Assembly: GCA_964630515.1 (NCBI GenBank)
Contig: CAZVVP010000002.1
Location: forward strand, 12,302 to 76,301
Origin: an uncultured Christensenella sp.
Lineage (GTDB): Bacteria; Bacillota; Clostridia; Christensenellales; UBA1242
Reading direction: 5' to 3'
DNA length: 64,000 nt
Part shown: in pieces, positions 27,049 through 61,912 of the stretch
How positions within the stretch are numbered: the first letter of the stretch is position 1
Layout: each line of letters starts with the position of its first letter
Notes under the pieces: model-generated
What the model was told of the DNA's origin: nothing
Databases searched by the model: none
Seen by the model: the letters and a program-made list of their open reading frames with translations, nothing else
Position numbers and translations under genes: made by a program

Positions 27049-30000
27049 ATGAAAGGCAACAATATTTTAAAGCAAATATCTAAGATTTTTGTATCTATTA
27101 CTATGGTATTTGCATTCCTTTGCACTCCAATAACTAAGTTCTTTAACAAGATTACTAAGGTTTTTGCTTCTAGTAATCCAGAGTTAACTAATGTAGAGGG
27201 TGCTAATATTCAGGTAGTTGGATTCGAAAGTACTGGTATAGTTGGTGAAGAGGTAAAATTACCTACAGTTATGATTGGTAATGCGACTTATCAGGCTAAC
27301 AATGATAACGATAATAGTGACTTATATTATGTAGTTAAGTCACCAGCAGGTAAGTCTGTTGTAACTCCACAATTTAAAGATGGTGATAACTCATATTATT
27401 ACTTCGTTCCGACTCAAGAAGGTGTATATACTGTTGATATCTACACACAATATGAGAACAAACTTAATACAGTTGTAGAGAATTTACAAATCAATGTTTC
27501 TAAGGCAGAAGTTGAATTCTCAGTTGATACAACAGCTATTGTAAAAAGTGGCAGTACTGCTAACATTTTACCTGCAAAGATTACTCTTTCGGACTTAACA
27601 AGCGATGCGTTTAAGCTTGATGCTCCTACAATTTCAGAAGGCGCAGATATGGCTAATATTAAGGTTGTTTGTATTCCTGCGGGCAAAACCAGCACAAATG
27701 ATGGCTACACACTAGTTTATGATGCTACAACTAAGACTTATTCTTTCTCAGCAGAGGATAAGGCAACAATTACTACTAATAACAAGTATGGTACTTACAC
27801 ATTTAAGTATTCTTATATCTCTAATGGTGTAAAATTGGGTAACGATATTACTTCTACTTGTGAAGTTACTGAGACTGATGACTTCGAAGATGATATCAAG
27901 CTTGCACTTAGCACTCTTATTTCTTCATCTGAGTTGACAAGTGCTAATATTGGCGAAACTATTGACTTACCTACAGCTACCGTATATAACTCAGCTAGTG
28001 GCACAACAGATGCAATCCCAGCAATCCTTTCTATTAAGATTACTCCATCAGAGTCTATTAGCGATGCAGTTATTGAACAAGAAGGTTATACTTTTAGTGC
28101 AAACAAGATCGGTACTTATCAAGTAACTTATACTGCAACTTATCCATATACTGATAAGACAGTTGAGAAGAATTATATTATTGAGCTTAAAGACGAAGTT
28201 GCACCAGATGTTATGTTTGTTAAGTCTTATGACAAAGACACAGACTATATTGCAACTACCCAAAACCCAACAGAGGCAGGTTTTGTAGAATATCTAGAAA
28301 CTAACAAAGATGCTAGCGATATGCTTAAGTCTGTTTATGTTCTTGGTGATGTTGATGGCGAAGAAGGATTGGAGGCAAAAATCGAAATCCCAGCTATCTA
28401 TGCTAAAGACAACTCAACAGATGGTAACTATACTCTAACAAGAGATATTACTACTGCTAACAATTCAAGTGTTGTAATTAGCGAAGATGCTAACAAAGAG
28501 ACTTTCTATACCGCAACATCTGAGGGTGTATACACCGTTTACTTTAGAGCTACAGATTCTAACGGTAAGAGCACTATTGCTAAACACTCTATGCTTGTTG
28601 TATCTGAAGATACTCTAAGAGAACTTTCAGAAGCTACAACTAATGAAGAAATTCTTAAGCCAGAACTTACGACTGCAACTCTTCCTAGAAGTATTGAATC
28701 TGATCAGGAATTGACTTTTGCTATCCCTACAGCAACTGATGCTTTGACTAATGATTTCAAGAACACTTTCACAAGATTAAAATCTTCTTCCATCAGCTGG
28801 TCAAGTAATGTAGATATTACTACAACTCTACAAGCATACACTTATGATGCTAACGAAGATGAGTATGTGCCTATGAGCGGTGTTTCTTACACATTCACAG
28901 AAGATGATATTAATGATAATAATCAATATACTTTAGACATGCAAGAATTCCTTGCTGATGTAACTTCTAAAGCAGATATTGCATATTTCAAAGTATCTTA
29001 TTATGCACAAACTGATTGGATGAAAGCACTTAATATCTCTGCACAAACTAAGAATTCTTCTAATATTGAGTTTATTTATGTAGAAGATGATACAACAGCT
29101 CCAACAATCGCACTTCTTGAAAATAGTGGCAAAACATCATTAAATGATCTTATTTATCTATTAAATACAGATAATATTAACCAAGTAATTGATGGTCGTG
29201 TTACAACGGTTGCTATAGAAAGTAATGGTAAAGTAACTCTTGCCGATGGTTCACTTGTTGCACCATTCAATCAATATTCTAGTACAAATCAAGAAGAAGT
29301 AATTTTGCCAGATTTAATTATTACTGATGCAGAAGATAGGTCAAACCTTTCTGTAACAGGAACAATTACAGACGCACTTGGCAATACTAAATCTTTCTTG
29401 CCTACAATTACTAAGATTGAGACATTGGTAGATTCATATCAATATTATGTAGATATGGGTTCTCACCAATTAACAACTGCTGGTCAACATACCATTACAA
29501 TTACTGCAGTAGATAAGGGCGGAAACATCTCAACTTATTCTTATGCAATATTTGTTAATGATAATACAAGCCCATCAGATATCGTTCTTAATACAGATAT
29601 TATTGGTGATAGTACAATCAGTACAACATATAATGTAGGAGAGTTTATTTATTTCCCAGAAGCTACAGTTGTAGACAATATGGATGAGGATATTGAGTAT
29701 ACCGCTACTCTTACATCATATCCTGCTAACGCAAGAATTATTGAGAACAAGTATAATCGTGGTTTCAAAACTTTGACTGCTGGAACTTATGAGATTACCT
29801 ATTCTTGTGAAGACTCTTCCGGTAATCCTTATACTAAGGTATATACTCTAGAAGTTATTGACAAAGATTACACTTCTATCGTAGTAGATGATTCTTTATT
29901 CCCAGAAGATATGAGATACTCTTTTGATGATACTACGACAACTAATGAGATTGTTATCCCATTCGGTATTACTATGAATACAGTTGACCCAACTCTTAAT

Positions 30001-30591
30001 AATATTGAGGTTAAACCAACTGTTAAGAATTCTAATAATGTAACTCAAACTGTTACTGCTAGTGATGATAACTACTCCTTTAATGCTAAACAAGGTATAT
30101 ATACAATTGAGTACAAATATGGCTCAGTTTCTAAGACTTTTACAATTTATGTAGGTGATACAGATGCTCCAACTATTAAGTGGTTAGAAGATGTTCCAAC
30201 TTCTCTTGACCTTAATGCGAAGTGGGGTGCTGGCATCGACGAAATGTTTGAGATTACTGATATCAAGAACGGTGAAAAAACCACTCTAGAATACAAGTCA
30301 ATCACAATCACTACTCCAAGTAGTTCTACTAAGGTAACTCTTACTGGAGATAATAATTACACATTTGATACAGAAGGCGACTATACTCTTACAATTACTT
30401 TCACAGATGGAGTTAATGAGGTAACTGAGACTAAGACTATTACAGTTGCTGGAAAAACAACAGAAGTTACCAACAACACAACTAACGTAGTAGGAACAAT
30501 CCTTCTTGTTGCTTCAATCTTGGTTGTTGGTGGTGTAATTGTATACCTTATCTTATCTTCTAAGAAATCTTCTAAGAAGAACAAAAATTAA
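27049..30591 (+). CDS. Large surface protein with tandem Ig-like (DUF5011/HYR-like) domains, signal peptide and C-terminal TM anchor
   Basis: N-terminal hydrophobic leader ending VFA/SSN. Recurrent domain-boundary motifs: KDEVAPDV, EDDTTAPTI, NDNTSPSDI, GDTDAPTI. Each is preceded by Y-x-A-x-D-x-x-G-N/K strands (FRATDSNGKS, ITAVDKGGNIS, YSCEDSSGNPY). The C-terminus VVGTILLVASILVVGGVIVYLILSSKKSSKKNKN is a TM helix with a basic tail. No LPXTG. Confidence 0.8.
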   Translation: MKGNNILKQISKIFVSITMVFAFLCTPITKFFNKITKVFASSNPELTNVEGANIQVVGFESTGIVGEEVKLPTVMIGNATYQANNDNDNSDLYYVVKSPAGKSVVTPQFKDGDNSYYYFVPTQEGVYTVDIYTQYENKLNTVVENLQINVSKAEVEFSVDTTAIVKSGSTANILPAKITLSDLTSDAFKLDAPTISEGADMANIKVVCIPAGKTSTNDGYTLVYDATTKTYSFSAEDKATITTNNKYGTYTFKYSYISNGVKLGNDITSTCEVTETDDFEDDIKLALSTLISSSELTSANIGETIDLPTATVYNSASGTTDAIPAILSIKITPSESISDAVIEQEGYTFSANKIGTYQVTYTATYPYTDKTVEKNYIIELKDEVAPDVMFVKSYDKDTDYIATTQNPTEAGFVEYLETNKDASDMLKSVYVLGDVDGEEGLEAKIEIPAIYAKDNSTDGNYTLTRDITTANNSSVVISEDANKETFYTATSEGVYTVYFRATDSNGKSTIAKHSMLVVSEDTLRELSEATTNEEILKPELTTATLPRSIESDQELTFAIPTATDALTNDFKNTFTRLKSSSISWSSNVDITTTLQAYTYDANEDEYVPMSGVSYTFTEDDINDNNQYTLDMQEFLADVTSKADIAYFKVSYYAQTDWMKALNISAQTKNSSNIEFIYVEDDTTAPTIALLENSGKTSLNDLIYLLNTDNINQVIDGRVTTVAIESNGKVTLADGSLVAPFNQYSSTNQEEVILPDLIITDAEDRSNLSVTGTITDALGNTKSFLPTITKIETLVDSYQYYVDMGSHQLTTAGQHTITITAVDKGGNISTYSYAIFVNDNTSPSDIVLNTDIIGDSTISTTYNVGEFIYFPEATVVDNMDEDIEYTATLTSYPANARIIENKYNRGFKTLTAGTYEITYSCEDSSGNPYTKVYTLEVIDKDYTSIVVDDSLFPEDMRYSFDDTTTTNEIVIPFGITMNTVDPTLNNIEVKPTVKNSNNVTQTVTASDDNYSFNAKQGIYTIEYKYGSVSKTFTIYVGDTDAPTIKWLEDVPTSLDLNAKWGAGIDEMFEITDIKNGEKTTLEYKSITITTPSSSTKVTLTGDNNYTFDTEGDYTLTITFTDGVNEVTETKTITVAGKTTEVTNNTTNVVGTILLVASILVVGGVIVYLILSSKKSSKKNKN

Positions 30592-30613
30592 TATTTGATT
30601 AATATTACAAAGA

Positions 30614-30646
30614 AACACTTCAAATACGAATGAGGTGTTTTTTTGT
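30614..30646 (+). terminator. Intrinsic terminator after the surface protein gene
   Basis: AACACTTC / GAGGTGTT stem (one G-U), 10-nt loop, then T7. Confidence 0.7.
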
Positions 30647-30686: not shown

Positions 30687-30715
30687 TTGCCAATATCTAT
30701 AATTTATTGTAAAAT
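30687..30715 (+). promoter_or_regulatory. Candidate sigma-A-type promoter of the three-gene unknown operon
   Basis: TTGCCA (30687-30692), 17-nt spacer, TAAAAT (30710-30715). Confidence 0.45.
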
Positions 30716-30784
30716 ACAAATAATATTATTAACATAATTAGACATATGTCTGCTTTTTGTTATACATTTGGAGGAAAATGGAAG

Positions 30785-33595
30785 ATGGCGATAGTCGCTT
30801 TAATAATAGCAATTCCTGTTTTAGTAATTGCATTAACAATAGGTATTAACGGTTGTATTAGTGTGTTTTTTGGTTTCTGTTATCGAATTGCACATGTGTT
30901 TTTGTGGCTTATTGATTTTGCACAGTCTTTAATGAGAAGATTATGTGGTTTAAACAATGATGGTGGAGATGTATTGTTAGAATTTTTAAAACAACCAAGT
31001 GTATATAATGCATTTTTAGGTATTTTGATTATCGCACTAATTTTGGTTGTTGTTTTTACAATTATACAAATTGTCAGAATACAATGGACTACTGAAGGTT
31101 CTAAGAATGCAGTTGGTCCGTTAATTAAAACCGCATTGAAATCTCTATTCTTTTTCTTTCTTATTCCAACATTTAGTATGATTGGAATCTTCGTTTCAAA
31201 TATGTTTCTTGAAGCTGTAGATGAAGCTACTTCAACTGTTGCTGATGAAGATGGACAATCAAGATCCATTGCTGGTCAAATTTTTTCAATTGCCAGTGAA
31301 GATGCAAATCCATATGCTGAGGATAATGATAAGATAGATTGGGTTTGGTGCGGATGGGATGACTTTTTAAATATTCTACTCAATAAAATAACCTTTGGAC
31401 TCGCGGGAGATTATGATGATGATACAGGAATAATTGTACGTGTCACTGGAACTTCAAACAAAGGTGAGGATAAAGTATATTTCGAAGGTGATCAAGTTAA
31501 AGGGGCTAGCAATTTAGGTTTGACTGAAGATGCCGAAAGTATTAATCTAGCTTTTTCGCAACTTACAGAAGATGCAATAAAGTTTGAAACCGGTTTTAGA
31601 GGACAAGATAATTATGCAAAGAGGTTAAAGAAAGATGAGCCTATAAATTATACAAATTATGATGCTGTATATTATGTTTATAATTTCAGTCAAATGAATT
31701 ATGCTGTATTATACATTGCAGGTTATTTTGTTTTAAAAGCACTAATCGATATTGTTTTTGGCCTAGTTATGAGGATTTATAAAATTGTAATATTATTAGT
31801 AATTTCACCGTATCCAGTTGCAGCATCAGTTCTTGATGATGGGCAATCATTAAATAAATGGAAAGGTAAATTCTTGGGTGAATTATTTTCATCGTATGCT
31901 GTTATTGCTGGCCTTAATTTGTTTATGATGTTAATTCCTTCCATAATAGGAAAAAATGGAATACAAATATTTACAAAAGATGCTGTTGGCGCCGAAGTTG
32001 GTTTTTATAATGGTGTTCTACAAATTATATTTCTAACTGTCGGGTGCATGATGATTAAAGATATCGTCGGAATTATTGCGGACTTAATTGGTGCTAATAA
32101 TACTATGGCTGATGGAGAAGGAATGTCAAAGCAAGTTGGAGATATGGCTATGAAAGCTGGCTCAGTCGCTATGGGTGGACTAACAATGGCATCATCTGCT
32201 GCTTTCTCATTAGGTGCAGGAGCTATGGCTCTTGGAAAAACTGCCGTTAATAAATTTCAAAATTCTAAAGCGAAAAAAAGAGAAAAGGAATTTAAAGATA
32301 GTGTCGATAAAGAGTTAGGTGGAAGTGTAAGTAGAAACGAAAAAAATAGAGACACAGCTCTGGAGAATGCAAAAAATCTTGCAGATCTTGAGGCGAAAGA
32401 AAAAGCTGGGACGCTTACAGCCGAAGAACAGGACGAGATGGACAAATTGTCTCAGGGTGGAACTGTAACATCACAAGACTATAAAAAGGCTGCTGATCTT
32501 GCTTCACAAAATCTTGAGACGATATATAAAAGTGATTCTTATAAGAATGCACAAAAAAAGCATTCTAAATTACAAGAAAAATCTGCTGGTTGGAATAAAC
32601 ATGCGCAAAATTCAGCTGCTAGTACAGCAATTAGTTTAAGAAACGTTCATAGAGGCGCTGCTGCATTTAGCTTAGGTTTAGGCAATATGGTAGGAAATAC
32701 TTCGATTGGAAAGATGGTAGATCAAGGTACTTTTGGGTTATTGCATAAAGAAAATAGAAGCAAACTGGACAAAGGTATTGCAGAATCTGCCTCCGGTGAA
32801 GCTGTTATGAAGGCGGCCGCTGGTGTAGAAAAAAGTCGTCAGGCCGATGGAGGATTTTGGCTAGGCAAAGTTAATAGAGGTTTAGCAGCACTTGATAAAC
32901 AACTTCATGACGGCAAACAAACAGCTCTTTCAAATTTATTGAAACCAAAGGATAGAAGCACAGGTGCTGTTAGTGAAGTAGATAATTTATTAAATCCATT
33001 TGAAAGATTAGTTGGTGCGATGGATAACAATTTAACTGAAAAAGATATTACAAAAGACTTCTTAGCAAACTTTAATACTTCAGATATGGAAAAAATAGCC
33101 AAAGCTGTGGAAAGAGGTATCAAAGCAGGAATGGATCCGAACAAAATGGATGAGAATACTGCTAGAGATTTAGTTGCAAATCGTGCAGAAATAGAAGATA
33201 AATTATCCTATCACGATCCAAGTATAAGAGAAGAATTAAAAGAATTCTTAGATGGCTTGGAAGAAGGTTTGGCTTATAAAGAAGGTTCTGCAGAAAGAAA
33301 GATAGCTTTCGATAAAGCTTCGGTTAATGCAAAGAATCTTGATGGTAAAATTGTAACGAAATTGGATAAGACAGCTATCAATGAAATAAAAGAAGGCTTA
33401 AAAAATGGTAAGACATCTCTTAAAGCAGTTATGGATAATAAAGCTTATAATCAGGAATTGAGAAACATAATTTCAAAAGGCTTCACTGAAGCTTATCAGA
33501 GAGTAGCAAATGCTAAATATGATAGCAAACAAGATAATCTTGTTGCTGAGTTGTTAAGACAAATTCTTGATGTAACAAAGAGCAATAAGAAATAA
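30785..33595 (+). CDS. Polytopic membrane protein with long Lys/Ala/Glu-rich cytoplasmic tail (VirB6/TrbL/TcpH-like layout); function unknown
   Basis: GGAGGA at 30770-30775 lies 9 nt before the ATG at 30785 (MAIVALII...). The ORF-track start at 30746 has no RBS. About 8 hydrophobic helices fall in the first ~470 aa (AIVALIIAIPVLVIALTIGI, FLGILIIALILVVVFTIIQIV, LFFFFLIPTFSMIGIFVSNMF, YAVLYIAGYFVLKALIDIVFGLV, IVILLVISPYPVAASVL, YAVIAGLNLFMMLIPSII, VLQIIFLTVGCMMIKDIVGIIADLIG). A Gly/Ala-rich segment follows (AMGGLTMASSAAFSLGAGAMALG), then ~470 aa of hydrophilic, helix-prone sequence. Confidence 0.8.
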   Translation: MAIVALIIAIPVLVIALTIGINGCISVFFGFCYRIAHVFLWLIDFAQSLMRRLCGLNNDGGDVLLEFLKQPSVYNAFLGILIIALILVVVFTIIQIVRIQWTTEGSKNAVGPLIKTALKSLFFFFLIPTFSMIGIFVSNMFLEAVDEATSTVADEDGQSRSIAGQIFSIASEDANPYAEDNDKIDWVWCGWDDFLNILLNKITFGLAGDYDDDTGIIVRVTGTSNKGEDKVYFEGDQVKGASNLGLTEDAESINLAFSQLTEDAIKFETGFRGQDNYAKRLKKDEPINYTNYDAVYYVYNFSQMNYAVLYIAGYFVLKALIDIVFGLVMRIYKIVILLVISPYPVAASVLDDGQSLNKWKGKFLGELFSSYAVIAGLNLFMMLIPSIIGKNGIQIFTKDAVGAEVGFYNGVLQIIFLTVGCMMIKDIVGIIADLIGANNTMADGEGMSKQVGDMAMKAGSVAMGGLTMASSAAFSLGAGAMALGKTAVNKFQNSKAKKREKEFKDSVDKELGGSVSRNEKNRDTALENAKNLADLEAKEKAGTLTAEEQDEMDKLSQGGTVTSQDYKKAADLASQNLETIYKSDSYKNAQKKHSKLQEKSAGWNKHAQNSAASTAISLRNVHRGAAAFSLGLGNMVGNTSIGKMVDQGTFGLLHKENRSKLDKGIAESASGEAVMKAAAGVEKSRQADGGFWLGKVNRGLAALDKQLHDGKQTALSNLLKPKDRSTGAVSEVDNLLNPFERLVGAMDNNLTEKDITKDFLANFNTSDMEKIAKAVERGIKAGMDPNKMDENTARDLVANRAEIEDKLSYHDPSIREELKEFLDGLEEGLAYKEGSAERKIAFDKASVNAKNLDGKIVTKLDKTAINEIKEGLKNGKTSLKAVMDNKAYNQELRNIISKGFTEAYQRVANAKYDSKQDNLVAELLRQILDVTKSNKK

Positions 33596-33601
33596 TTAGT
33601 T

Positions 33602-33623
33602 GATGCCTAATATTTTAGGCATC
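33602..33623 (+). other. Perfect 9-bp hairpin between operon genes 1 and 2 (no U-tract)
   Basis: GATGCCTAA-TATT-TTAGGCATC, followed by TCTAATTAAAGAGG (the RBS) rather than a T-run. Confidence 0.5.
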
Positions 33624-33642
33624 TCTAATTAAAGAGGTAAAT

Positions 33643-34407
33643 ATGATTGATAAGATAAAAATGAGAAAAATAAGATATGATGTAGTCAAACAGTTAGAAC
33701 TTGAAGATTTATTAAACAAAATTAATACAGCTTTAGATAATAAAGAAAAATATAAAGAAGATTTTGATTATCTTAAAGATTTGCAAAAAGAAGCAAATCT
33801 TGATATTTCTAAACTTAATTATGAAGAAATAATTAATCAATTGGAAACTTTTGTTAAAGATAGTAATACGATTGATTCTATAGATCATTTACCTATACTT
33901 GATTATATAGATGAAGTTTTTCAACAAGTAGATGAAGATAATTTTGTATTATCAGAAGATAAGCTTGCTGAATTTGAAAATTTCTTATTACAACTATTAC
34001 AGATAGAAAAATTACAAGTAAGAATGTTAGAGCAAGCACAACAAATTTTTTACATTGGTGATAATAATGACATATATGATGTTTCAACAGATAAAGTTGT
34101 TATTAAAGCTAAAGATATCTTAAAAGAATTTAATTCTGACAACGAAGAAGATATTAGTCAGTTAAGTATTCAATATATTGCAAAATTAATCGTTTCTTCT
34201 CAAAGAAAATATATAATGGGGTTAGATTTTAGTGATGAAGGCTTTTATACTACATTAGAGGGTGATGATATTTTTACTGAAGAAGAGAAAAAATTTATCA
34301 TAGAAGAATCGAATCTTGAAAGGAATAAAATTCTTGGTCAAGATTTAGAAGAGGATAATAACAACATAGAAGAAAATGATATATTCGATGATGTGACTAT
34401 TGATTAA
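33643..34407 (+). CDS. Highly acidic cytoplasmic protein, unknown function
   Basis: RBS AGAGG 6-7 nt upstream. 254 aa, very Asp/Glu-rich (ends EEDNNNIEENDIFDDVTID). No signal peptide or TM. Only 47 nt after the upstream gene. Confidence 0.75.
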   Translation: MIDKIKMRKIRYDVVKQLELEDLLNKINTALDNKEKYKEDFDYLKDLQKEANLDISKLNYEEIINQLETFVKDSNTIDSIDHLPILDYIDEVFQQVDEDNFVLSEDKLAEFENFLLQLLQIEKLQVRMLEQAQQIFYIGDNNDIYDVSTDKVVIKAKDILKEFNSDNEEDISQLSIQYIAKLIVSSQRKYIMGLDFSDEGFYTTLEGDDIFTEEEKKFIIEESNLERNKILGQDLEEDNNNIEENDIFDDVTID

Positions 34408-34428
34408 TTTGTTCAACTTTGTTATAAT
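34400..34428 (+). promoter_or_regulatory. Candidate internal sigma-A-type promoter for the 628-aa gene
   Basis: TTGATT (34400-34405), 17-nt spacer, TATAAT (34423-34428). Overlaps the stop codon of the acidic-protein gene. Confidence 0.4.
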
Positions 34429-34462
34429 ATAGCAAGTATGCTACAAAGTTGGAGGGAGAGAT

Positions 34463-36349
34463 ATGGATTTATTTACTAAAGAGTTTAAATTGGCTGCAAT
34501 TTTTAAAGGTATAGGAAAAATAGGGCATGATAGGATGTTGGGACTATTGGAATATTATATAGGGCTATTGTCTCAAAATAGTTACTATTCTAGCCGCATA
34601 GAAAAAGATGTTGCTCCTCCAAAGCCAGACCCATCTCCAAAGAAGAATCCCGAATTGACAATCCCTGAAGCGAAGGGGAAGGATAGATTTAAGGAGTTGG
34701 ATAAACTTCTTAGAGTCCATGGCTTAGATTGGAAGAGTAAAACTCCAGAGCAAAAGGAGTTCTACGAACAGTTTATAGAGAAATCTCAAGAAGATGTTAT
34801 GAATGTTGTTGGAGCCACTTTCGATGAAATTTTGAAAGCTGGTAACATTAATCCGGAAATTATAAAGATGATGTCTGCCATGAAAGATGCATTTTCTGTA
34901 GATCCGGAAAATGCTAAAAGTTGTCCAATGATGTCTTTGATTGAAGCAATTAAGGAGGATAAAATTCCTTATGATGCTCTTCCTATAGAAGTTTTATCGA
35001 CTCTAAAGACTTTAGATGATTTGGCAGCTACAGCTTTAGGTATTGATCCAAAAGAATTTGCAGATAAGAACTTAGGAATGAAAGACCAATTTGGAACATT
35101 CCAGTTTCCTCCTCATGCAGACTTGTCCAAGTTAGGGATAGAGGGGCAATTTGTATTTGCTATCCAGCAAATGTTTGCTAAAGAAGATATGACTGCAATG
35201 ATGACTCCGGGCAGTAAATTAAAGTCTGTAGATATGCTAAATACTATGTTAGCTAAGTATTCAGAGATGATAACTACTAAAGAGAATGCTAGTAAAGATA
35301 GAGCAAAATTAAGAGCTAAAGACTATGAAGCTGCGGCGGTAAAGAGTTCTAAAGAAATATATGCATTTGATGAGTTGCAAGGTGATGTGGCAAGCGAAAA
35401 AGTAGACAAAAGCATCATTAGGCACGATAAAGAAAGGGCAAAACAAATAAAAGAATTAGGCGAAGAGAAGTTAGAGCAAAGAAGACAAATGTTAAGAAAT
35501 CAAGAGATGGCAAAAAAAGCTGCTTCTGGCGAAATGACAGAAGAGCAGTTAGAGGTTCTTGATGAATATCATAAGATTATGGACGAAGTTGCAGATCTTA
35601 TGGATGTACATAGAGGGATAAACAACGACAAAAAACGTGACCATGGATATTGGAGACATGAGGCAGATAACCAAGCAATTGCCAATTATGCTAAAGATGA
35701 AGCTAAAATGCTTGCTAGTTTAGGAAACAAATTAAAGACTGGAAAAATTACTTTTGAGCAATACAAAGCGATTAGAGATGGTGTTGACCTTGCAATGGAT
35801 GAAGGGGCTTACAAGAATAGACCTATAAGCGAAGTATATGCTCAGTTTGAGCAAGAAGTTGTAGAGGGTAAAGCAAAGATTCAAGAGGAAAAAGTTGTAT
35901 TTGAAAAGAAAGAGGCTATCAGAGGTACAATGACCAAAGATGAGTGGATTGCAAAAGAATTTGCTGAAGACAAAGATAGAATCAAGTTTGATAAACAATT
36001 AACTATGTATGCAAAAGATATTGATAAGGCACAAGAATATTTAAATGAGCTTGCGAAAACCGACCCTGCTAAAGCTAAAGAAGTAGAAATGTTGATAAAG
36101 GAAAGACAAGTAGAGTTAGAGGCTGATGCTAGAGCTAAAGCTGGATTTAAGGAAATGGTTGACAAAGAAAATGCTGTTAAGAGAGGTGAGCCATTAGAGG
36201 CAGAAGCTCCAGAGGTTGCAGAGTCTGAAACAGAGGCAGAAACTGAGAAAACTGAGTCGGAAGTTGTCCCAGAGGTTGTTCCAGAATTAGTTGAGGAAGA
36301 AGCTAAGCCAAAACCTCCAGTAATGGAAGATGCAGAGCCAACAATGTAG
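34463..36349 (+). CDS. Charged coiled-coil-type cytoplasmic protein with Glu/Pro-rich C-terminal tail, unknown function
   Basis: RBS GGAGGGAG at 34451-34458. 628 aa. No TM or signal peptide. Long Lys/Glu/Ala heptad-like stretches. Tail EAEAPEVAESETEAETEKTESEVVPEVVPELVEEEAKPKPP. Confidence 0.8.
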   Translation: MDLFTKEFKLAAIFKGIGKIGHDRMLGLLEYYIGLLSQNSYYSSRIEKDVAPPKPDPSPKKNPELTIPEAKGKDRFKELDKLLRVHGLDWKSKTPEQKEFYEQFIEKSQEDVMNVVGATFDEILKAGNINPEIIKMMSAMKDAFSVDPENAKSCPMMSLIEAIKEDKIPYDALPIEVLSTLKTLDDLAATALGIDPKEFADKNLGMKDQFGTFQFPPHADLSKLGIEGQFVFAIQQMFAKEDMTAMMTPGSKLKSVDMLNTMLAKYSEMITTKENASKDRAKLRAKDYEAAAVKSSKEIYAFDELQGDVASEKVDKSIIRHDKERAKQIKELGEEKLEQRRQMLRNQEMAKKAASGEMTEEQLEVLDEYHKIMDEVADLMDVHRGINNDKKRDHGYWRHEADNQAIANYAKDEAKMLASLGNKLKTGKITFEQYKAIRDGVDLAMDEGAYKNRPISEVYAQFEQEVVEGKAKIQEEKVVFEKKEAIRGTMTKDEWIAKEFAEDKDRIKFDKQLTMYAKDIDKAQEYLNELAKTDPAKAKEVEMLIKERQVELEADARAKAGFKEMVDKENAVKRGEPLEAEAPEVAESETEAETEKTESEVVPEVVPELVEEEAKPKPPVMEDAEPTM

Positions 36350-36360
36350 ACTGTTGATAT

Positions 36361-36395
36361 AATCACAAAGCTAATTTAGTTTTGTGATTTTTTTA
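36361..36395 (+). terminator. Intrinsic terminator ending the three-gene operon
   Basis: AATCACAAA / TTTGTGATT perfect 9-bp stem, 11-nt loop, then a T-run. Confidence 0.8.
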
Positions 36396-55367: not shown

Positions 55368-56218
55368 GATTTATTAATATTTACAAACCTTCTGGCCTAA
55401 CTTCAAGTAATGTTGTAGTTAAATTAAGAAAAAAGTTTCATTTGGACAAGATTGGACACATGGGAACGCTAGATCCAATGGCTTGTGGTATATTGCCAAT
55501 TGCTATTGGCAAAGCCACAAGAATGTTTGATTATTTTTTGGATAAATACAAGACATATATTGCAACCTTTGAGTTTGGTTATGAGACAAATACGCTAGAT
55601 TTAGATGGTGAAGTCGTGAATACAACAAGATTAGTACCCAGTCAATCTGAAGTGATGCGGAAGCTAGGAGAGTTTTTGGGGAAAAGTAATCAAATTCCGC
55701 CTAATTTTAGTGCAAAATTGGTTAATGGCGTCAGGTCTTACAAATTAGCCAGAGAAGGAATTAATATTGAATTAAAGCCTAAAGAAATCGAAATTACAAA
55801 GTTTAAATTTGTTTGCAGGGAAGATAATAAGTATACCTTTGAAATAACTTGTTCTAGCGGTACTTATATTAGAGCAATAGGTAGAGATTTGGCTAAATCA
55901 CTTAATTCTTTATGTACTATGACAAAGTTGGAAAGGGTAGAGTCTGGAGTTTTTAATCTTAATAATTCTTATACTTTAGAAGAAATTTTGGAAAGTGATA
56001 CTTTGGAAAATTTTCTTATTGATGTAGAGACGGTATTTCCAAAAATACTTAAGATAGATATTAATGAGTTTCTTTATAATAGGATAAGGAACGGTTTGAG
56101 TATACATAACACATATAATATTAAAAATATCGCTTTTGTTAAGTATAATAATCAATTAATCGGCGTTGCAGAAAATATAGATAATGAACTAAAATTAAAA
56201 ACATATTTGATGGAGTGA
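55361..56218 (+). CDS. truB: tRNA pseudouridine(55) synthase
   Basis: GHMGTLDPMACGILP (catalytic Asp). 285 aa. Confidence 0.93.
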   Translation: MLGFINIYKPSGLTSSNVVVKLRKKFHLDKIGHMGTLDPMACGILPIAIGKATRMFDYFLDKYKTYIATFEFGYETNTLDLDGEVVNTTRLVPSQSEVMRKLGEFLGKSNQIPPNFSAKLVNGVRSYKLAREGINIELKPKEIEITKFKFVCREDNKYTFEITCSSGTYIRAIGRDLAKSLNSLCTMTKLERVESGVFNLNNSYTLEEILESDTLENFLIDVETVFPKILKIDINEFLYNRIRNGLSIHNTYNIKNIAFVKYNNQLIGVAENIDNELKLKTYLME

Positions 56219-56221
56219 TAA

Positions 56222-57070
56222 ATGGTAAAATTTGGACCTTCGGGTAATTGTGAATCTTTTTATAATGCAGGGCATAAAAGGACTTTGGAAGCACCAAAGT
56301 GGCTAAGTGAACAAGGTTTAACACACTATGAATATTCTTTTGGTAAAGGAATACTACTAAAAGATGATATGGCAAAAATGATAGGAGATGAGTTTAGAAA
56401 ATATAATATTTCTGTATCTATTCATGCACCATATTATATAAATTTTGCCACCCCGACTGAAGAAATGGCAGAAAAGAGCATAAAGTATGTGCTAGACAGT
56501 ATTGACAAACTTAGATTGATGGGTGGCGATAGGTTAATTGTTCATCCCGCTTCTTGTGGAAAAATGACAAGAGAGGAAGCTGTAAAATTAACTAAAGAAC
56601 GATTGGAAAAACTTGCAAAAGTATTGGTTGATACTAACAATGAAGATGTTCTAATTTGTCTTGAAACTATGGGAAAACAAGCCCAAATTGGCACTTATGA
56701 AGAAATAATTGACTTCTGCAAAATAGCTCCTAACTTTATCCCAACTTTTGATTTTGGTCACATTAATGCGTTAGAACAAGGCTCATTAAAAAACAAGCAA
56801 GATTATTTAAAGATATTTAATCTAGCAATCAAAGAACTAGGTTTTGACAAAATAAATAATTGTCATATACATTTTAGTAAAATAGAATTTGGAACAAAAG
56901 GTGAAATTAAACATTTAACCTTTGAAGATGAGGTGTATGGTCCTGAATTTGCACCACTGGCTGAGGCAGTTAAGGAATTAAACTTAAATCCGATAATAGT
57001 TTGTGAAAGTAAAGGTATTATGGCTATTGATGCCAAAAAGATGAGAGATATCTACAACAATTTAGTTTAA
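56222..57070 (+). CDS. TIM-barrel protein of the endonuclease IV / AP endonuclease family 2 type
   Basis: MVKFGPSG N-terminus and SIHAPYYINFATP (Nfo-like H-x-x-Y-x-I-N motif). 282 aa. Confidence 0.6.
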   Translation: MVKFGPSGNCESFYNAGHKRTLEAPKWLSEQGLTHYEYSFGKGILLKDDMAKMIGDEFRKYNISVSIHAPYYINFATPTEEMAEKSIKYVLDSIDKLRLMGGDRLIVHPASCGKMTREEAVKLTKERLEKLAKVLVDTNNEDVLICLETMGKQAQIGTYEEIIDFCKIAPNFIPTFDFGHINALEQGSLKNKQDYLKIFNLAIKELGFDKINNCHIHFSKIEFGTKGEIKHLTFEDEVYGPEFAPLAEAVKELNLNPIIVCESKGIMAIDAKKMRDIYNNLV

Positions 57071-57072
57071 AG

Positions 57073-57115
57073 AAAAAAACATTTTTGCAAAATTTATAGC
57101 AAAATGTTTTTTTTT
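57073..57115 (+). terminator. Intrinsic terminator after the endonuclease IV-like gene
   Basis: AAAAAAACATTTT / AAAATGTTTTTTT A/T-rich stem around a GC-closed loop, ending in a T-run. It covers the ATG (57104) that the ORF track uses for spoIIIAA. Confidence 0.6.
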
Positions 57116-57211
57116 GTTATCTTAAGTAAATTGATGTTAATATTAATATTTATTTGCACATTAATTCTTTTGTTAGGAAATATAAATAATACAAACATAT
57201 GGAGGCGAATT

Positions 57212-58120
57212 GTGTTAGAAAGTTTATTGCCAAAGGATATAGTGGAAGCTTTAGAAAATATTAATATATCTAAACTTTGTGAACTTCGACTTAGAGTAAA
57301 TATGCCTATATGTATTAATATATTGGGTGAAAGTTATTATTTGGCTAGTTATGGGATTTGTAATTCAAAAAGCAATGCTATTATTTGCAAGAAATCTCAC
57401 ATTGATTACATTATCCAAATTGCTAGTAATAACTCTTTATATACGATTAATGACCAGCTTGTAAATGGTTATATCTCTTATTTGGGCGGAATAAGGATTG
57501 GTGTCGCTGGAGAGTTTGTATATGTTAATGACCAGATTAAAACAATAAAAAATATTCAGGCATTAAATATTCGCATTCCTCATGAAGTTTTTGGGTGTTC
57601 TTTATCAGGTTTTCAGTATATCCAAAAAGGAAAAAGTATATATAACACTCTTATTTTATCTCCAGCAGGGGCTGGGAAAACTACATATATAAGGGATTTG
57701 GCAAAACAATTATTAAACAAATTTCAAATGCTTAATGTTTTAATTGTGGACGAACGATGCGAAATTACTGGAATAGCTAATGGCAAAGCAAATTTTTCTG
57801 ATTTTAATTGTGATATTCTGTCTAATTGCAAGAAAGAGTATGCTTTCGATAATGGAATAAGAAGTTTAAAACCTGATGTCATAATTACTGATGAATTATC
57901 TCAAGAAGATATTAAGTCCGTAGAAAATGCAATTACTTGTGGTGTGAAAGTTGTAGCAACCATTCATGCAGATAGTATAATGGATTTAAAAAATAAGCCT
58001 AAATTTATCGATATTTTACAAAAGAAATTATTTGATAGATATATAATTTTGTCTGCTAATAATAGACCAGGAGAGTTCGTAGGGGTCTATGATGCAGAAT
58101 TAGAGTGTATTGCTTTATGA
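57212..58120 (+). CDS. spoIIIAA: Stage III sporulation protein AA (AAA-type ATPase)
   Basis: GGAGG at 57201-57205, then GTG at 57212 (VLESLLPKDIVEAL...). Walker A SPAGAGKTT, Walker B DVIITDEL. About 300 aa, as in known SpoIIIAA. Confidence 0.88.
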   Translation: MLESLLPKDIVEALENINISKLCELRLRVNMPICINILGESYYLASYGICNSKSNAIICKKSHIDYIIQIASNNSLYTINDQLVNGYISYLGGIRIGVAGEFVYVNDQIKTIKNIQALNIRIPHEVFGCSLSGFQYIQKGKSIYNTLILSPAGAGKTTYIRDLAKQLLNKFQMLNVLIVDERCEITGIANGKANFSDFNCDILSNCKKEYAFDNGIRSLKPDVIITDELSQEDIKSVENAITCGVKVVATIHADSIMDLKNKPKFIDILQKKLFDRYIILSANNRPGEFVGVYDAELECIAL

Positions 58121-58575
58121 AAATGCTTCTTATTTGTATCGTTTTTATTTCAATGACAGCAATTTCTCTACTAAATGTTTCCTATTTTTCAAAGAAAAAA
58201 AAGATATTTAGCGAATTGATTGATTTTTTTAAAATGTATAAAGGAGAAATTAATTTTTCCAAGAATTCAATTTCGCAAGTAATTTCAAGAACAAGTGAAA
58301 AGTATTGTTCAGAAACCAAGCAAATTCTAGATAATTATAGCTCTATAAACGAATATCCAAATTGTATTAACGAAAAGGAAAAGAAAGAAATCTTTGACTT
58401 GTTTAAAACTATTGGTCAAAGAGATGTTGATAGTGAAATAAGTTATTCAAATAATGTTATAGAGATGTTGGAAAAACTTTTTTCAAATGCTGAAAGTGAT
58501 CATGTCAATAAAGGATTACTTAGGGCTAAACTTATATTTATATTGGGACTTATTATTGTTATAATATTAATTTAA
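58117..58575 (+). CDS. spoIIIAB: Stage III sporulation protein AB
   Basis: The ATG overlaps the spoIIIAA TGA (ATGA). N- and C-terminal TM helices flank a soluble domain containing FKTIGQRDVDSE (compare B. subtilis FGETLGIHD). Confidence 0.8.
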   Translation: MKMLLICIVFISMTAISLLNVSYFSKKKKIFSELIDFFKMYKGEINFSKNSISQVISRTSEKYCSETKQILDNYSSINEYPNCINEKEKKEIFDLFKTIGQRDVDSEISYSNNVIEMLEKLFSNAESDHVNKGLLRAKLIFILGLIIVIILI

Positions 58576-58584
58576 GGGAAATGT

Positions 58585-58779
58585 ATGGGAATAGATATAA
58601 TTTTTAAAATTGCAGGTGTGGGAATAATTACAGCTGTCACTAATCAAATTTTAAAACATTCTGGCAAAGACGAAATAGCAATGTTAACAACTCTTGCTGG
58701 AGTAATAATTGTGTTATTTATGGTGATTAATATGATTAGTGAACTATTTGATACAATTAAGACATTGTTTAATTTTTAG
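58585..58779 (+). CDS. spoIIIAC: Stage III sporulation protein AC
   Basis: MGIDIIFKIAGVGIITAV...HSGKDE... aligns by eye with B. subtilis SpoIIIAC (MGVDVNVIFQIAGVGIVVAF...). 64 aa. Confidence 0.88.
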   Translation: MGIDIIFKIAGVGIITAVTNQILKHSGKDEIAMLTTLAGVIIVLFMVINMISELFDTIKTLFNF

Positions 58780-58794
58780 TAATGGAAAAATTTT

Positions 58795-59181
58795 ATGAAT
58801 ATATTAAAACTTTCATTATTTGCAATATCAATTGTTTTTGCGATTGTCTTTACAAAACAAGTGAAACCAGAATTTGCAGTAATTGTAAGCGTTGCTGGTT
58901 CTATTGCTATTCTTGCATACATATTAGGATTTTTTACAGATTTAGTAGTTCTTTATAATCAATTAATTGCCAAGACTGGTATTAACCAAGAATATTTTAC
59001 AATTCTTCTTAAAGCAATAGGTGTTGGATATTTGGTAGAATTTGCAAGTGGAGTATGTAAAGATAGTGGTAATTCGTCAATTGCAGACAAAGTGACTCTT
59101 GCTGGAAAAATTTCAATACTTTTACTAGCTGTTCCAATAATTAAATCAATTTTTGAAATCGTCAGTGGAATCATATTATGA
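58795..59181 (+). CDS. spoIIIAD: Stage III sporulation protein AD
   Basis: 128-aa four-TM protein in the conserved operon position. Confidence 0.82.
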   Translation: MNILKLSLFAISIVFAIVFTKQVKPEFAVIVSVAGSIAILAYILGFFTDLVVLYNQLIAKTGINQEYFTILLKAIGVGYLVEFASGVCKDSGNSSIADKVTLAGKISILLLAVPIIKSIFEIVSGIIL

Positions 59182-60413
59182 AATTCAAAAAGTGTCTTAA
59201 TAACTCACAAGTATATAAAGCCAAGAATAGTAAAAAGAGGAACTTATCACTTATTCTATTTTTTATAATTATTTCTGTAATTTGCGTATTTCCCATAACA
59301 ATTACAGCAACAGAAGAGAGTAGTGAAGAAAATTATACTGATTTATATGAAAACACATTTCAAGAATTAGAGAAATACGATTTTAGTGGTATAGATGCGA
59401 TAATTAATAATATGGATTCGGAAATATCTTTTGGTGATAACTTTGTAGATATTGTAAGTCAAATTATTAATGGTGAAATGGATATTAATGCTACAAATAT
59501 AATAGAACACATTCTTAAAGTTATAATATCTAATATCAAACAAATAATTCCAATATGTCTGATAATAATTTGTATTGCAATATTAATAAGGTGTTTGCAT
59601 TCATTTAGTCCTAATACTTTTAAAGATGGAATTAGTGATATTATTAATTTTGTTGCGATTGGAATAGTAGTTATTTTTATTAGTAAGATTGTAATAGAAG
59701 TTAATGAATTGGTATATTCAACGACTTCGACAATGCAAAATATTATAAATATAATCTTTCCAATATTGATGACTCTAATGGGTGTCGTGGGAGCTTCTAG
59801 TAGTGTGGCGATTTATACTCCAATAACCACAATTCTTAATACTGGAGTTTCAAATATTATTACCAATTATTTGTATCCAATTTATACAATTTCGTTTGCT
59901 TTAATTGTTGTTTCAGTATTGACAAATAGAATGAAATTAGACAAATTTATAAATTTTCTTAATAGTGTCTTCAAGACACTGCTTGGGTTTTTGTTTACAA
60001 TATTTAGTAGTGTTTTTGTCATAAAAGGCATATCTGCTGGCAAATATGATAGTGTAAGTATTTATACAACCAAGTTTGCTGTCAAGAATTATATTCCACT
60101 AATTGGCTCTTATATATCAGAAGGATTTAACTATTTATTACTAAGTTCTGTTCTTATAAAAAATGCTGTTGGATTAGCAGGTATAGTTATATTATTATTA
60201 AATATATTATTGCCGGTGATATATATTTTCGTTATAAAATTAGCATTGCAATTTACATCATCAATTGTTGATCTTCTTGGAAGTTCAAGTGTAAGTACTT
60301 TGCTTGATAAGGTAAGTAAGATTATGGCGTTTCCTTTGTCTGTTATTTTAGGTGTTGCGTTTATGTTTGTAATGACTTTATCTTTAGTTATATGTACAGC
60401 AAATCTTATTTAA
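59178..60413 (+). CDS. spoIIIAE: Stage III sporulation protein AE
   Basis: 411-aa polytopic membrane protein with an N-terminal signal-like segment. ATGA overlap with spoIIIAD. Confidence 0.85.
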   Translation: MKFKKCLNNSQVYKAKNSKKRNLSLILFFIIISVICVFPITITATEESSEENYTDLYENTFQELEKYDFSGIDAIINNMDSEISFGDNFVDIVSQIINGEMDINATNIIEHILKVIISNIKQIIPICLIIICIAILIRCLHSFSPNTFKDGISDIINFVAIGIVVIFISKIVIEVNELVYSTTSTMQNIINIIFPILMTLMGVVGASSSVAIYTPITTILNTGVSNIITNYLYPIYTISFALIVVSVLTNRMKLDKFINFLNSVFKTLLGFLFTIFSSVFVIKGISAGKYDSVSIYTTKFAVKNYIPLIGSYISEGFNYLLLSSVLIKNAVGLAGIVILLLNILLPVIYIFVIKLALQFTSSIVDLLGSSSVSTLLDKVSKIMAFPLSVILGVAFMFVMTLSLVICTANLI

Positions 60414-60429
60414 AAGGAAGAAGATAGAC

Positions 60430-60597
60430 ATGGCAGAGTTTATATATTCAATTTTTGGAATTGCAATGCTTGGCGTTTTGGTTGATATTATTGATAGTGG
60501 TAAAAATACGCTTATAGACTTTATATATGATTTAATAGTTCTTGTTGTAATTATAACTAATATCGTTAATATGCTGAAAGGTTTTCAACTTTTATAA
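60430..60597 (+). CDS. spoIIIAF: 55-aa two-TM protein at the spoIIIAF position (SpoIIIAF N-terminal hairpin only)
   Basis: Not in the ORF track (<60 aa). RBS AAGGAAG at 60414-60420, 9 nt before the ATG. Translation: MAEFIYSIFGIAMLGVLVDIIDSGKNTLIDFIYDLIVLVVIITNIVNMLKGFQLL. Resembles the B. subtilis SpoIIIAF N-terminus (..LTTIVLFILFAIVIDMLLP...YAKMVVSLLLIVV..). Confidence 0.55.
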   Translation: MAEFIYSIFGIAMLGVLVDIIDSGKNTLIDFIYDLIVLVVIITNIVNMLKGFQLL

Positions 60598-60740
60598 TTG
60601 ACATATTTTGTAGAATATTGTTTTCTTAATTTAATATAGTTATTTTGTGGTTCTAAAAAAATGTGATTCATAATAAAATATGGTAACAAACCAAGAGAAA
60701 TCTTGAGTTTTTAAATCAAAAGGGGACAAGGTAATGTTTG

Positions 60741-61349
60741 ATGGATGAACATAATGAAACTGGTAAAGAAAATTCTTCTATATTATCAAATGTCAAGAAA
60801 TACTTTTCAAAGCTGTCTAGTATTGGAAAGGTTAAGATGTTGCTACTTATTGCAGTCTTAGCAGTTGTTGTTATATTATCTACAAATTTTGTAGATAGTA
60901 GTACAACTCAAACAATAGTGAGCGAAAAAAGTTCTGATAAAACTTCTTCTTATTATGTTTCAAGTATAGATTATTGTAAAGAGATTGAGGAAAAACTTGA
61001 GAATGTTTTGTCAAACTTAAATGGACTTGGAAATGTGGAAGTTATGATTACACTTGATTCAAGTTTAGAATTAGTGTTTGCTGAGTCGATTGAAGAAAAA
61101 ACTAATTCTTCATTGCAAACGGGTTCAACTGGTTCTTATATAGTTGAAGTATCATCTCCTATCATAATAGAAACTAGTAGCGGTGATGAACCATTAGTTG
61201 TTAAAGAAATTTTGCCAAAAATCAAAGGCGTTTTAATAGTATGTTCAGAGATGCAAAATGTTGCAAGTAAACTTAATATCATTCAAGCTGTACAATCTTT
61301 GCTAGGAATTAATGTATCAAATATTCAGGTATTATCAAGTTTAAATTAA
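60741..61349 (+). CDS. spoIIIAG: Stage III sporulation protein AG
   Basis: N-terminal TM (LLLIAVLAVVVILS). C-terminus IKGVLIVCSEMQNVASKLNIIQAVQSLLGINVSNIQVLS matches B. subtilis IRGVLVVAQGVDNVQIKQTIIEAVTRVLDVPSHRVAV. An alternative TTG start lies at 60738. Confidence 0.85.
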   Translation: MDEHNETGKENSSILSNVKKYFSKLSSIGKVKMLLLIAVLAVVVILSTNFVDSSTTQTIVSEKSSDKTSSYYVSSIDYCKEIEEKLENVLSNLNGLGNVEVMITLDSSLELVFAESIEEKTNSSLQTGSTGSYIVEVSSPIIIETSSGDEPLVVKEILPKIKGVLIVCSEMQNVASKLNIIQAVQSLLGINVSNIQVLSSLN

Positions 61350-61364
61350 AGAGAGGTTAGGGAA

Positions 61365-61853
61365 ATGTCAAAGAAAAAAAGATTTTTTATAATTACAGGT
61401 TTTTGTCTTTTGTTGCTTGTTACAGGAACAGTAAATATTCTAGTAAATAATTCATTAGTTGCAGAAAATAATACAGATACTACAGTTAACGCAAATACAA
61501 CAGTAGGAAACTTTTTTACCAATTATAGAACAAATAGAACAGACACAAGAAATGAAGAGCTTATGTATTTAGAGGCAATCATTTCTAGCGAAGCTTCTTC
61601 TGCTGAAGCTATAAGCAATGCTGAAGCTGAAAAAATTAAAATTGTAACAGCAATGGAAAGTGAGTTAACAATGGAGGGATTGATTAAAGCAAAAGGTTTT
61701 GAAGATGTTATAATTTCTGATTTAAATAACAGTATTACGGTTATGGTTAAAAGTGCAGAGTTGACAAAGTCTGAGGTTGCTCAAATTGTTGATGTTGTAC
61801 AAGCTCAAACTAAGTATGATATTGAAAATATTAAGATTATTCCTGTAGAATAA
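61365..61853 (+). CDS. spoIIIAH: Stage III sporulation protein AH
   Basis: 162 aa. N-terminal TM. Last gene of the spoIIIA cluster. RBS AGAGAGG. Confidence 0.78.
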   Translation: MSKKKRFFIITGFCLLLLVTGTVNILVNNSLVAENNTDTTVNANTTVGNFFTNYRTNRTDTRNEELMYLEAIISSEASSAEAISNAEAEKIKIVTAMESELTMEGLIKAKGFEDVIISDLNNSITVMVKSAELTKSEVAQIVDVVQAQTKYDIENIKIIPVE

Positions 61854-61867
61854 TAAAAAATCAATTT

Positions 61868-61912
61868 AACACTATATGAGGTTCATGTTTGCCTTGTGTA
61901 GTGTTTATTTTT
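61868..61912 (+). terminator. Intrinsic terminator after spoIIIAH
   Basis: AACACTATAT / GTGTAGTGTT stem (two G-U pairs), 18-nt loop, then TATTTTT. Confidence 0.6.

Follow-up and report, generated by a model that had tools for sequence, protein, structure and literature searches.

A probable VirB6-position subunit of a type IV secretion system, orphaned from its gene cluster, and its two proposed acidic partners in an uncultured Christensenella

The DNA analysed here (the window) is a 64,000-nucleotide stretch of contig CAZVVP010000002.1 from an uncultured Christensenella sp. (assembly GCA_964630515.1), and our subject is a trio of same-strand (+) open reading frames (ORFs) within it, designated g1, g2 and g3, which are all intact and separated by spacers of 47 and 55 nt. 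This is the three-gene operon claimed by an earlier sequence-only reading of the same DNA, and the public record gives product lengths of 936, 254 and 628 aa. We conclude that the trio is an orphaned, elaborated subunit of a type IV secretion system (T4SS), namely the one occupying the VirB6 slot, together with two novel partner proteins. The genes and the elements that bracket them are as follows:

30785-33595, + strand: g1, polytopic membrane protein of 936 aa, NF045848/NF045889 family, T4SS VirB6-position subunit
33643-34407, + strand: g2, soluble protein of 254 aa, isoelectric point (pI) 4.19
34463-36349, + strand: g3, soluble protein of 628 aa, pI 5.02
30607-30646, + strand: terminator-like hairpin with T-run, ending the gene of an 1180-aa surface protein and forming the 5' boundary of the trio
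36361-36395, + strand: intrinsic terminator (hairpin 36361-36389 plus T7) with a 13-bp stem, ending the operon

Since hairpin terminators lie on both flanks, the trio is insulated and forms a bracketed unit. RNA folding gave -18.3 kcal/mol for the upstream hairpin (z = -4.9, with 0 of 200 shuffles equally stable) and -13.6 kcal/mol for the downstream one (z = -4.6), the latter bearing out the strong terminator that had been read at 36361-36395. The start of g1 is almost certainly the ATG at 30785 and not the one at 30746 previously chosen, which lies 13 codons too early: a GGAGGA ribosome-binding site is found at 30770-30775, 9 nt 5' of the former, and the homologues all begin at the equivalent Met.

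g1 itself is divided into a membrane domain with a large acidic insertion and a long basic tail:

30785-32236, + strand: N-terminal membrane domain (aa 1-484), the conserved family core
31211-31699, + strand: acidic loop domain (aa 143-305), 163 aa, after the third or fourth transmembrane (TM) helix
32237-33592, + strand: cytoplasmic tail, 454 aa, with a Gly/Ala-rich start and a Lys/Ala-rich body, pI approximately 9.1

Hydrophobic blocks fall at residues 1-43, 70-103, 109-142, 306-352, 366-390 and 405-437 (M14 numbering), and hydropathy together with an AlphaFold2 (AF2) model gives approximately 7-8 TM helices, in keeping with a VirB6/TrbL protein, for which at least five and a large extracytoplasmic loop are expected. 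The layout described earlier from sequence (about 8 TM helices, a loop of about 160 aa, a Gly/Ala segment and a Lys/Ala tail) therefore stands. The loop contains 32 Asp and Glu versus 13 Lys and Arg, a bias from which it is predicted to lie outside the cell, and its AF2 secondary structure is a mixture of helix and strand. The tail ends in an amphipathic helix and a Lys cluster (ELLRQILDVTKSNKK), and tails of the g1 family are basic in every homologue examined (pI 8.2-9.7).

Sequence searches with g1 returned nothing significant in Pfam, PHROGs or the PDB. NCBIfam, on the other hand, gave 143.3 bits against NF045848 ('MMCAP2_0566 family conjugal transfer protein'; curated cut-off 90) and 101.4 bits against NF045889 ('Mbov_0396 family ICE element transmembrane protein', ICE being an integrative and conjugative element; curated cut-off 70), with matches in two stretches that span both TM blocks. 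In M. mycoides capri GM12, MMCAP2_0566 forms part of the ICE (PMC3053259). When 1.84 billion cluster representatives were searched with a profile built on the first 484 aa, 2337 proteins (50%-identity clusters) matched at E <= 1e-3, of which 1122 reached E <= 1e-30; most have 750-1000 aa with the domain at their N-terminus. The N-domain defines a large family that lacks a Pfam model, and g1 keeps its invariant residues G55, P128, G134, R330, W359 and N378 (alignments of 83-145 members). No plasmid homologue of the N-domain was found by tblastn in 72,556 plasmids.

The genomic company kept by these relatives also supports a VirB6-like identity. In a scan of GTDB species genomes we found 28 loci, all in metagenome-assembled genomes of uncultured gut or rumen Clostridia/Christensenellales, and in 22 of them the g1 homologue is adjoined by VirD4 and/or VirB4 (ORF clustering and Pfam). 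The VirD4 proteins, or type IV coupling proteins (T4CP), match PF02534 (1.8e-50) and TraG-D_C (5e-33), the VirB4 proteins match P-loop_TraG (1.3e-16) and AAA_10, and the pilins match PF18895. The usual order is <VirD4, one to four small PF18895/TrbC pilins, the g1 homologue, VirB4 and a large protein; T4SS-type loci of this kind are L011-L032 and L034-L044, apart from L026, which is arranged like the window (examples are L023:6378-21186 and L038:3573-17369). A search based on VirB4, and thus not routed via g1, yielded eight distinct further loci, every one with a g1 homologue directly 5' of VirB4. The T4SS-embedded homologues score 116-142 bits against NF045848 and 70-90 bits against NF045889, and their E-values with the g1 N-domain profile reach 1e-100 and beyond. 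At one locus (L039:2006-7622) two tandem g1-family paralogues of 905 and 898 aa lie 5' of VirB4, from which it follows that a gene of this family can duplicate.

The order and sizes of these clusters are colinear with Mycoplasma ICEA CDS5(670)-CDS13/15-CDS16(357)-CDS17(928)-CDS19(1517). The Mycoplasma ICE protein of NF045848/NF045889 resembles g1 in being a multi-TM protein and shares its sequence family over the N-domain; judging from size, TM count and position, these models are probably of the CDS16 type. CDS16 lies just 5' of CDS17, as the genes of the g1 relatives lie just 5' of VirB4. It has 8 TM helices and is a likely VirB6-like subunit (PMC12857230), and its disruption abolishes ICE transfer (PMC6030558). 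The differences are considerable: the Mycoplasma profiles cover approximately 310-320 positions and CDS16 has 357 aa, whereas the 936-aa g1 carries an inserted 163-aa loop and a 450-aa basic tail, and its gene lies in the chromosome instead of an ICE and adjoins no ATPase gene. Like VirB6/TrbL (TrwI of R388), g1 is a polytopic inner-membrane protein encoded at the VirB6 gene position, but unlike R388-type VirB6 it belongs to a monoderm system without VirB5, VirB7, VirB9 and VirB10. The g1 layout is shared by TcpH of pCW3 (CD3337-EF1877 family, NF046089), a protein with a VirB6-like role, which has an N-terminal polytopic part and a long cytoplasmic C-terminal region (approximately 830-940 aa) and yet belongs to another sequence family. 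Long extensions are also borne by the rvh VirB6 paralogues of Rickettsiales.

Flanking genes of the T4SS clusters are housekeeping genes (nrdG, P-type ATPase, tmk, thyX, fba, gapdh and mnmA), and neither a relaxase nor an integrase was found within 10 kb of them. In a syntenic set of species VirB4 is 78-95% and VirD4 73-94% identical, compared with 74-84% for the P-type ATPase and 59-92% for Tmk; in a second, more divergent set the identity of VirB4 falls to 59%. Because identity of the secretion ATPases tracks that of housekeeping proteins, we take this T4SS to be vertically inherited and chromosomal and not an ICE, and we found no description of such a chromosomal T4SS of gut Clostridia in the literature searched. 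A parallel is the T4SS of Patescibacteria, which is likewise chromosomal and relaxase-less and comprises VirB4, T4CP, VirB6 and arrays of PF18895 VirB2-like pilins (PMC12102498), matching the tandem PF18895 pilins, VirD4 and VirB4 of the clusters described here. It is essential for epibiotic growth in Southlakia. Compared with that system, the window locus retains the VirB6-slot gene alone.

When the VirB4 motifs DPENEYE and YPVF.NFF were followed into JGI metagenomes (L045-L121), the next VirB4s after those of the Clostridia had an identity of 22-27%, and many came from groundwater and 0.1-um-filter samples; these are possibly Patescibacteria-like. Near VirB4 in two such loci (L052:2480-4486 and L106:3970-5946) are proteins with the polytopic, Gly/Ala-rich and charged-tail layout of g1, which match the g1 hidden Markov model (HMM) at 1.6e-4 and 2.3e-5, marginal values that stem mostly from low-complexity regions.

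We found that the arrangement in the window is shared by nine loci (the window, L001-L007 and L026), in the order giant gene - PBP5-type carboxypeptidase - 1180-1205-aa surface protein - g1 - g2 - g3 - plsX - rnc - smc - ftsY. Three of these (L003, L006 and L026) are partial, and one g1 protein (P0007) is shared by L002, L003 and L007, which brings the number of distinct lineages below nine. The flank synteny, with plsX, rnc, smc and ftsY directly 3' of the trio, is conserved across species. Further downstream the Pfam-scanned ORFs at 44-56 kb are core genes (frr, uppS, cdsA, rseP, rimP, nusA, infB and truB), and no relaxase, integrase or transposase was found among these ORFs, plsX-ftsY and the spoIIIA genes. 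In a neighbour-joining (NJ) tree of the g1 N-domain the window-type sequences are monophyletic, with L008, L009 and L010 as nearest neighbours. In L008 a distant g2 relative (E = 6e-8) comes after the g1 homologue. In L009 and L010 this position is taken by an intact VirD4 with 51-70% identity to others, and no VirB4 lies within 10 kb; these loci show that an ATPase can be retained when the cluster breaks up. Taken together, the synteny and the tree indicate that the window arrangement is a derived exception and g1 a clade-restricted offshoot of the chromosomal T4SS. Co-conservation of the trio beside large surface genes, an idea of the sequence-only reading, was confirmed for the window-type loci and does not extend to the g1 family at large, which mostly occurs without g2, g3 or those surface genes.

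The g1 genes of window-type loci are 34-40% identical in product (N-domain 44-51%, tail 24-28%) where plsX/smc are 72-77% identical, and the corresponding figure for T4SS-embedded homologues is mostly 35-40%, at approximately 75% identity in the housekeeping P-type ATPase. On this comparison g1 is not decaying and evolves at the same rate as its T4SS-embedded homologues. A terminal amphipathic helix with lysines is common to the g1 tails of both locus types, although the tails of the two types cannot be aligned with each other, except for L006 and L008. These data bear on the view that the T4SS resemblance is incidental and that g1 either belongs to an unrelated envelope, division or sporulation module near plsX-rnc-smc-ftsY or is a decaying remnant. 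Such a view draws on the core housekeeping location, the spoIIIA genes approximately 20 kb 3' and the lack of a Pfam domain in g1, but NCBIfam scores far above the curated cut-offs, profile E-values reaching 1e-100 and beyond, the unchanged rate, and intact ORFs that retain the invariant residues in at least nine loci make it highly improbable.

Neither g2 nor g3 has a TM segment, and sequence and profile searches with both gave nothing in Pfam, PHROGs, NCBIfam or the PDB, so the earlier statement that they fit no recognised family holds, as does the description of g2 (pI 4.19) as extremely acidic. g2 carries the conserved motifs KIRYDV and LDFxDxGxY..DG..F and has orthologues that are 31-38% identical in L001, L002, L004 and L005. 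In g3 a core of approximately 170 aa (aa 77-250) is conserved; the protein also has a Lys/Glu-rich stretch that is variable, and its C-terminus is acidic and rich in Pro. Its positional orthologues are 23-31% identical over a core of approximately 170-250 aa, and a search of 5.8 billion proteins recovered only g3 itself and one relative (55% identity). Both proteins are co-conserved with g1 and restricted to the window-type clade. Two possible origins were rejected. The combined length of g2 and g3 (approximately 880 aa) equals that of VirB4, but hhalign probabilities against the VirB4 and VirD4 profiles are no more than 0.2%, which speaks against remnants of either, and are below 1% for kinship with the large acidic proteins encoded 3' of VirB4.

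We propose that g1 is the polytopic inner-membrane subunit in the VirB6 slot of a minimal monoderm T4SS of Mycoplasma-ICE or MPF-FATA-like kind, and that its gene in the window clade has been split from the VirD4 - pilin - VirB4 cluster housing its other relatives. It now shares an operon with the genes of two soluble acidic proteins peculiar to this clade. In the membrane g1 would oligomerise into a VirB6-like platform or channel, with the acidic 163-aa loop directed towards the cell wall and the 450-aa basic tail in the cytoplasm. g2 (pI 4.2) and g3 (pI 5.0), which are complementary to this tail in charge, would dock on it as dedicated adaptor or scaffold proteins, and the complex would still work with T4SS ATPases whose genes lie at other genomic sites. 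We are confident in the identity of g1 as a VirB6-slot membrane protein. For the full chain, from the platform through g2 and g3 as tail adaptors to ATPases at a distance, we consider the chances evenly balanced, and we favour it because of the unchanged selective constraint on g1, the extreme degree to which VirB4 and VirD4 are conserved in all relatives, and the intermediate represented by L009/L010. Dispersed T4SS islands are known in Rickettsia (PMC12102498).

Several results weigh against this proposal. PF04610 (TrbL/VirB6) has no match to g1 even at E <= 1. The AF2 model of the N-domain (pLDDT 86, pTM 0.81; an alignment of seven sequences had given a pLDDT of only 49) has a TrwI/VirB6 chain as its best match in a Foldseek search of the PDB, and such chains make up 8 of the first 35 matches, which speaks for the proposal; none is significant, however (TrwI of R388: E = 1.1, TM-scores 0.19/0.31). 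Family HMMs run on all ORFs of at least 70 aa detected no VirB4, VirD4 or pilin in the 64-kb window, as the sequence-only reading had stated for VirB4 and VirD4, and none lies within 10 kb of g1 in the nine window-type loci. If the T4SS were split, VirB4 clusters lacking a g1 homologue would be expected, and none was seen among the eight independently sampled VirB4 loci. Among the best 120 of 489 VirB4 relatives no window-type contig is indicated, including the 1.08-Mb P0004 scaffold, which is a weak negative. Finally, the evidence for docking of g2 and g3 on the tail consists of charge and operon linkage.

From the foregoing it can also be seen that the sequence-only reading, in calling g1 VirB6/TrbL/TcpH-like, recognised the right kind of protein, given the NCBIfam cut-offs and the VirB6-slot context, and attached it to the wrong families. 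The PF04610 affiliation fails at E <= 1, and for TcpH the model NF046089 is absent from g1 while TcpH itself matches it at 6.1e-28, and hhalign of the g1-family profile with TcpH gave 1.8% probability. A transitive link to PF04610 by way of VirB6-slot proteins in the distant VirB4 loci was tried and rejected: four further VirB6-slot proteins (L043, L044, L052 and L106) have no PF04610 match, and the HMM similarity is mostly of low complexity.

Instead of being split, a full canonical T4SS with a more divergent g1 copy could reside elsewhere in the genome, in which case g1-g2-g3 would be a neofunctionalised duplicate with a separate role. The tandem paralogues of L039 are a precedent, and the motif used in our genome scan is present in only one of nine independently found g1 homologues, so that second copies would usually have been missed; for this reason 'one g1 copy per genome' was dropped as an argument against a second T4SS. 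Yet the NJ tree joins the window-type clade to L008 and L009/L010 and does not place it as a duplicate lineage beside canonical copies, and no genome has been shown to hold both types, which leaves the duplicate an improbable explanation.

Upstream of the trio lie two genes for large proteins:

2-24907, + strand: giant ORF, at least 8268 aa long and open at the window start
27049-30591, + strand: 1180-aa acidic surface protein, directly 5' of g1 in all full-length window-type loci

The positional equivalents of the giant ORF in relatives encode 9219-9461 aa. The window's giant has no Pfam match at E <= 1e-3, so the 'GLUG-type' label given to it earlier is not supported, and phmmer detected no resemblance between it and the C-terminal portions of these equivalents. 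The gene is conserved by position while diverging fast in sequence. At its N-terminus the 1180-aa protein has a hydrophobic signal-like segment and at its C-terminus a TM anchor with the Lys-rich stop-transfer KKSSKKNKN; it gives weak Ig-like matches, and its orthologues are 45-54% identical and thus better conserved than g1-g3. With its signal-like N-terminus and TM anchor, export via g1 is not needed to explain this protein, which would fit Sec export. Secretion of the giant protein by the system, as suggested in the sequence-only reading, is unlikely in the form proposed, given these features of the 1180-aa neighbour. The label of a novel export system was likewise an overstatement, since g1 is a derived offshoot of a recognisable chromosomal T4SS, although the trio itself is real. 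Kinship of the giant or the 1180-aa protein with the large proteins of T4SS-type loci was considered and rejected (no phmmer matches).

An alternative that gives these neighbours a part is that the T4SS ATPases and pilins were lost and that g1, g2 and g3 now form an ATPase-less envelope platform tied to the giant, the 1180-aa protein and PBP5, which might serve, for example, in anchoring or organising a structure for adhesion or attachment. The order giant - PBP5 - surface protein - g1-g2-g3 is invariant even though housekeeping proteins are only approximately 75% identical, no T4SS gene lies near g1, and no g1-less VirB4 cluster was seen. The g1 homologues always sit beside surface-filament or adhesin genes, be they pilins (T4SS type), TasA/SipW-like proteins (L009) or Ig-like proteins (window), and the acidic Pro-rich end and Lys/Glu-rich regions of g3 are typical of scaffolds. 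Against this, VirB4 and VirD4 are among the best-conserved genes of the relatives (59-95% identity), which would make their loss surprising, and both the rate of g1 and its invariant residues are unchanged. Moreover, the surface-protein gene has its own terminator and its product a signal-like N-terminus, so that a functional link to the neighbours is conjectural. We regard such a repurposed platform as possible but doubtful. A bolder version, which we think unlikely, is that the freed VirB6-slot subunit and its two recruited acidic proteins would make up an ATPase-independent envelope platform coupled to the giant and 1180-aa proteins, that is, a T4SS-derived adhesion or attachment organelle, and an offshoot of a hitherto undescribed, vertically inherited, relaxase-less and pilin-bearing T4SS of Christensenellales paralleling that of Patescibacteria.

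Further details of the loci can be recorded. In L009 (5300-20496) and L010 the g1 homologue and VirD4 are enclosed by a cluster of secreted proteins that on visual inspection resemble TasA, with three TasA-like paralogues of approximately 200 aa and others. The cluster also encodes a MacB-type ABC transporter and a protein similar to SipW-type signal peptidases, which has an SGSM motif but no Pfam match. In the T4SS-type loci the gene after VirB4 forms a recurrent feature:

L012:15774-18629, L019:16060-20721, L023:16144-21186, L038:12756-17369 and equivalents: slot 3' of VirB4, large acidic protein

These proteins have 796-1872 aa, are acidic, and show no signal peptide, TM segment or Pfam/NCBIfam match. 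They are homologous within one species group but hypervariable and unrelated between the species of another, and an effector or substrate may be what this hypervariable slot encodes. Acidic cytoplasmic partners beside a basic-tailed VirB6-slot protein may be a recurring theme.

Within and just 5' of the operon itself, several minor elements can be listed:

30687-30715, + strand: sigma-70-like promoter match TTGCCA-17-TAAAAT (10/12 positions), positional support only
33602-33624, + strand: hairpin in the g1-g2 spacer, 9-bp stem without T-run (read from sequence)
34400-34428, + strand: promoter-like match before g3, TTGATT-17-TG-TATAAT, extended -10
34414-34451, + strand: 9-bp hairpin in the g2-g3 spacer, overlapping the extended -10 match

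In this AT-rich DNA promoter-like matches number 58, versus 53.8 +/- 7.7 expected from shuffles, and the hexamers at 30687-30715, which had been read as the promoter and are indeed present, therefore provide no evidence by themselves. The hairpin at 33602-33624 is possibly an element of mRNA processing or stability, and the hairpin and extended -10 site upstream of g3 suggest processing or an internal promoter. Two antisense ORFs, at 35881-36366 (- strand, 161 aa, inside g3) and 30880-31269 (- strand, 129 aa, inside g1), are almost certainly not genes, as their products are Ser/Thr-rich or low-complexity mirror-frame sequences. At approximately 56200-61900 of the window, some 20 kb 3' of the trio, are the spoIIIA genes for SpoIIIAB, AC, AD and AE (Pfam on an identical Logan contig), which make the host a likely spore-forming member of the Clostridia. 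The PBP5-type carboxypeptidase indicates that the host is no wall-less mollicute, despite the Mycoplasma-ICE-like g1.

Placing the g1 family in the VirB6 slot provides an annotation for a large block of 'hypothetical' membrane proteins, amounting to 2337 clusters. The comparison set further reveals, in gut Clostridia, a T4SS that is inherited vertically, includes arrays of VirB2-like pilins and has no relaxase within 10 kb. According to a 2025 review the known functions of Gram-positive T4SS are nearly all in DNA transfer (PMC12857230), and a core, non-mobile T4SS of gut Firmicutes would therefore be a candidate for a new, non-conjugative function, comparable to the one proposed for the T4SS of Patescibacteria. 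The window locus in turn is a natural experiment in how a VirB6-type subunit acts, and which partners it acquires, once it has been parted from its machine.

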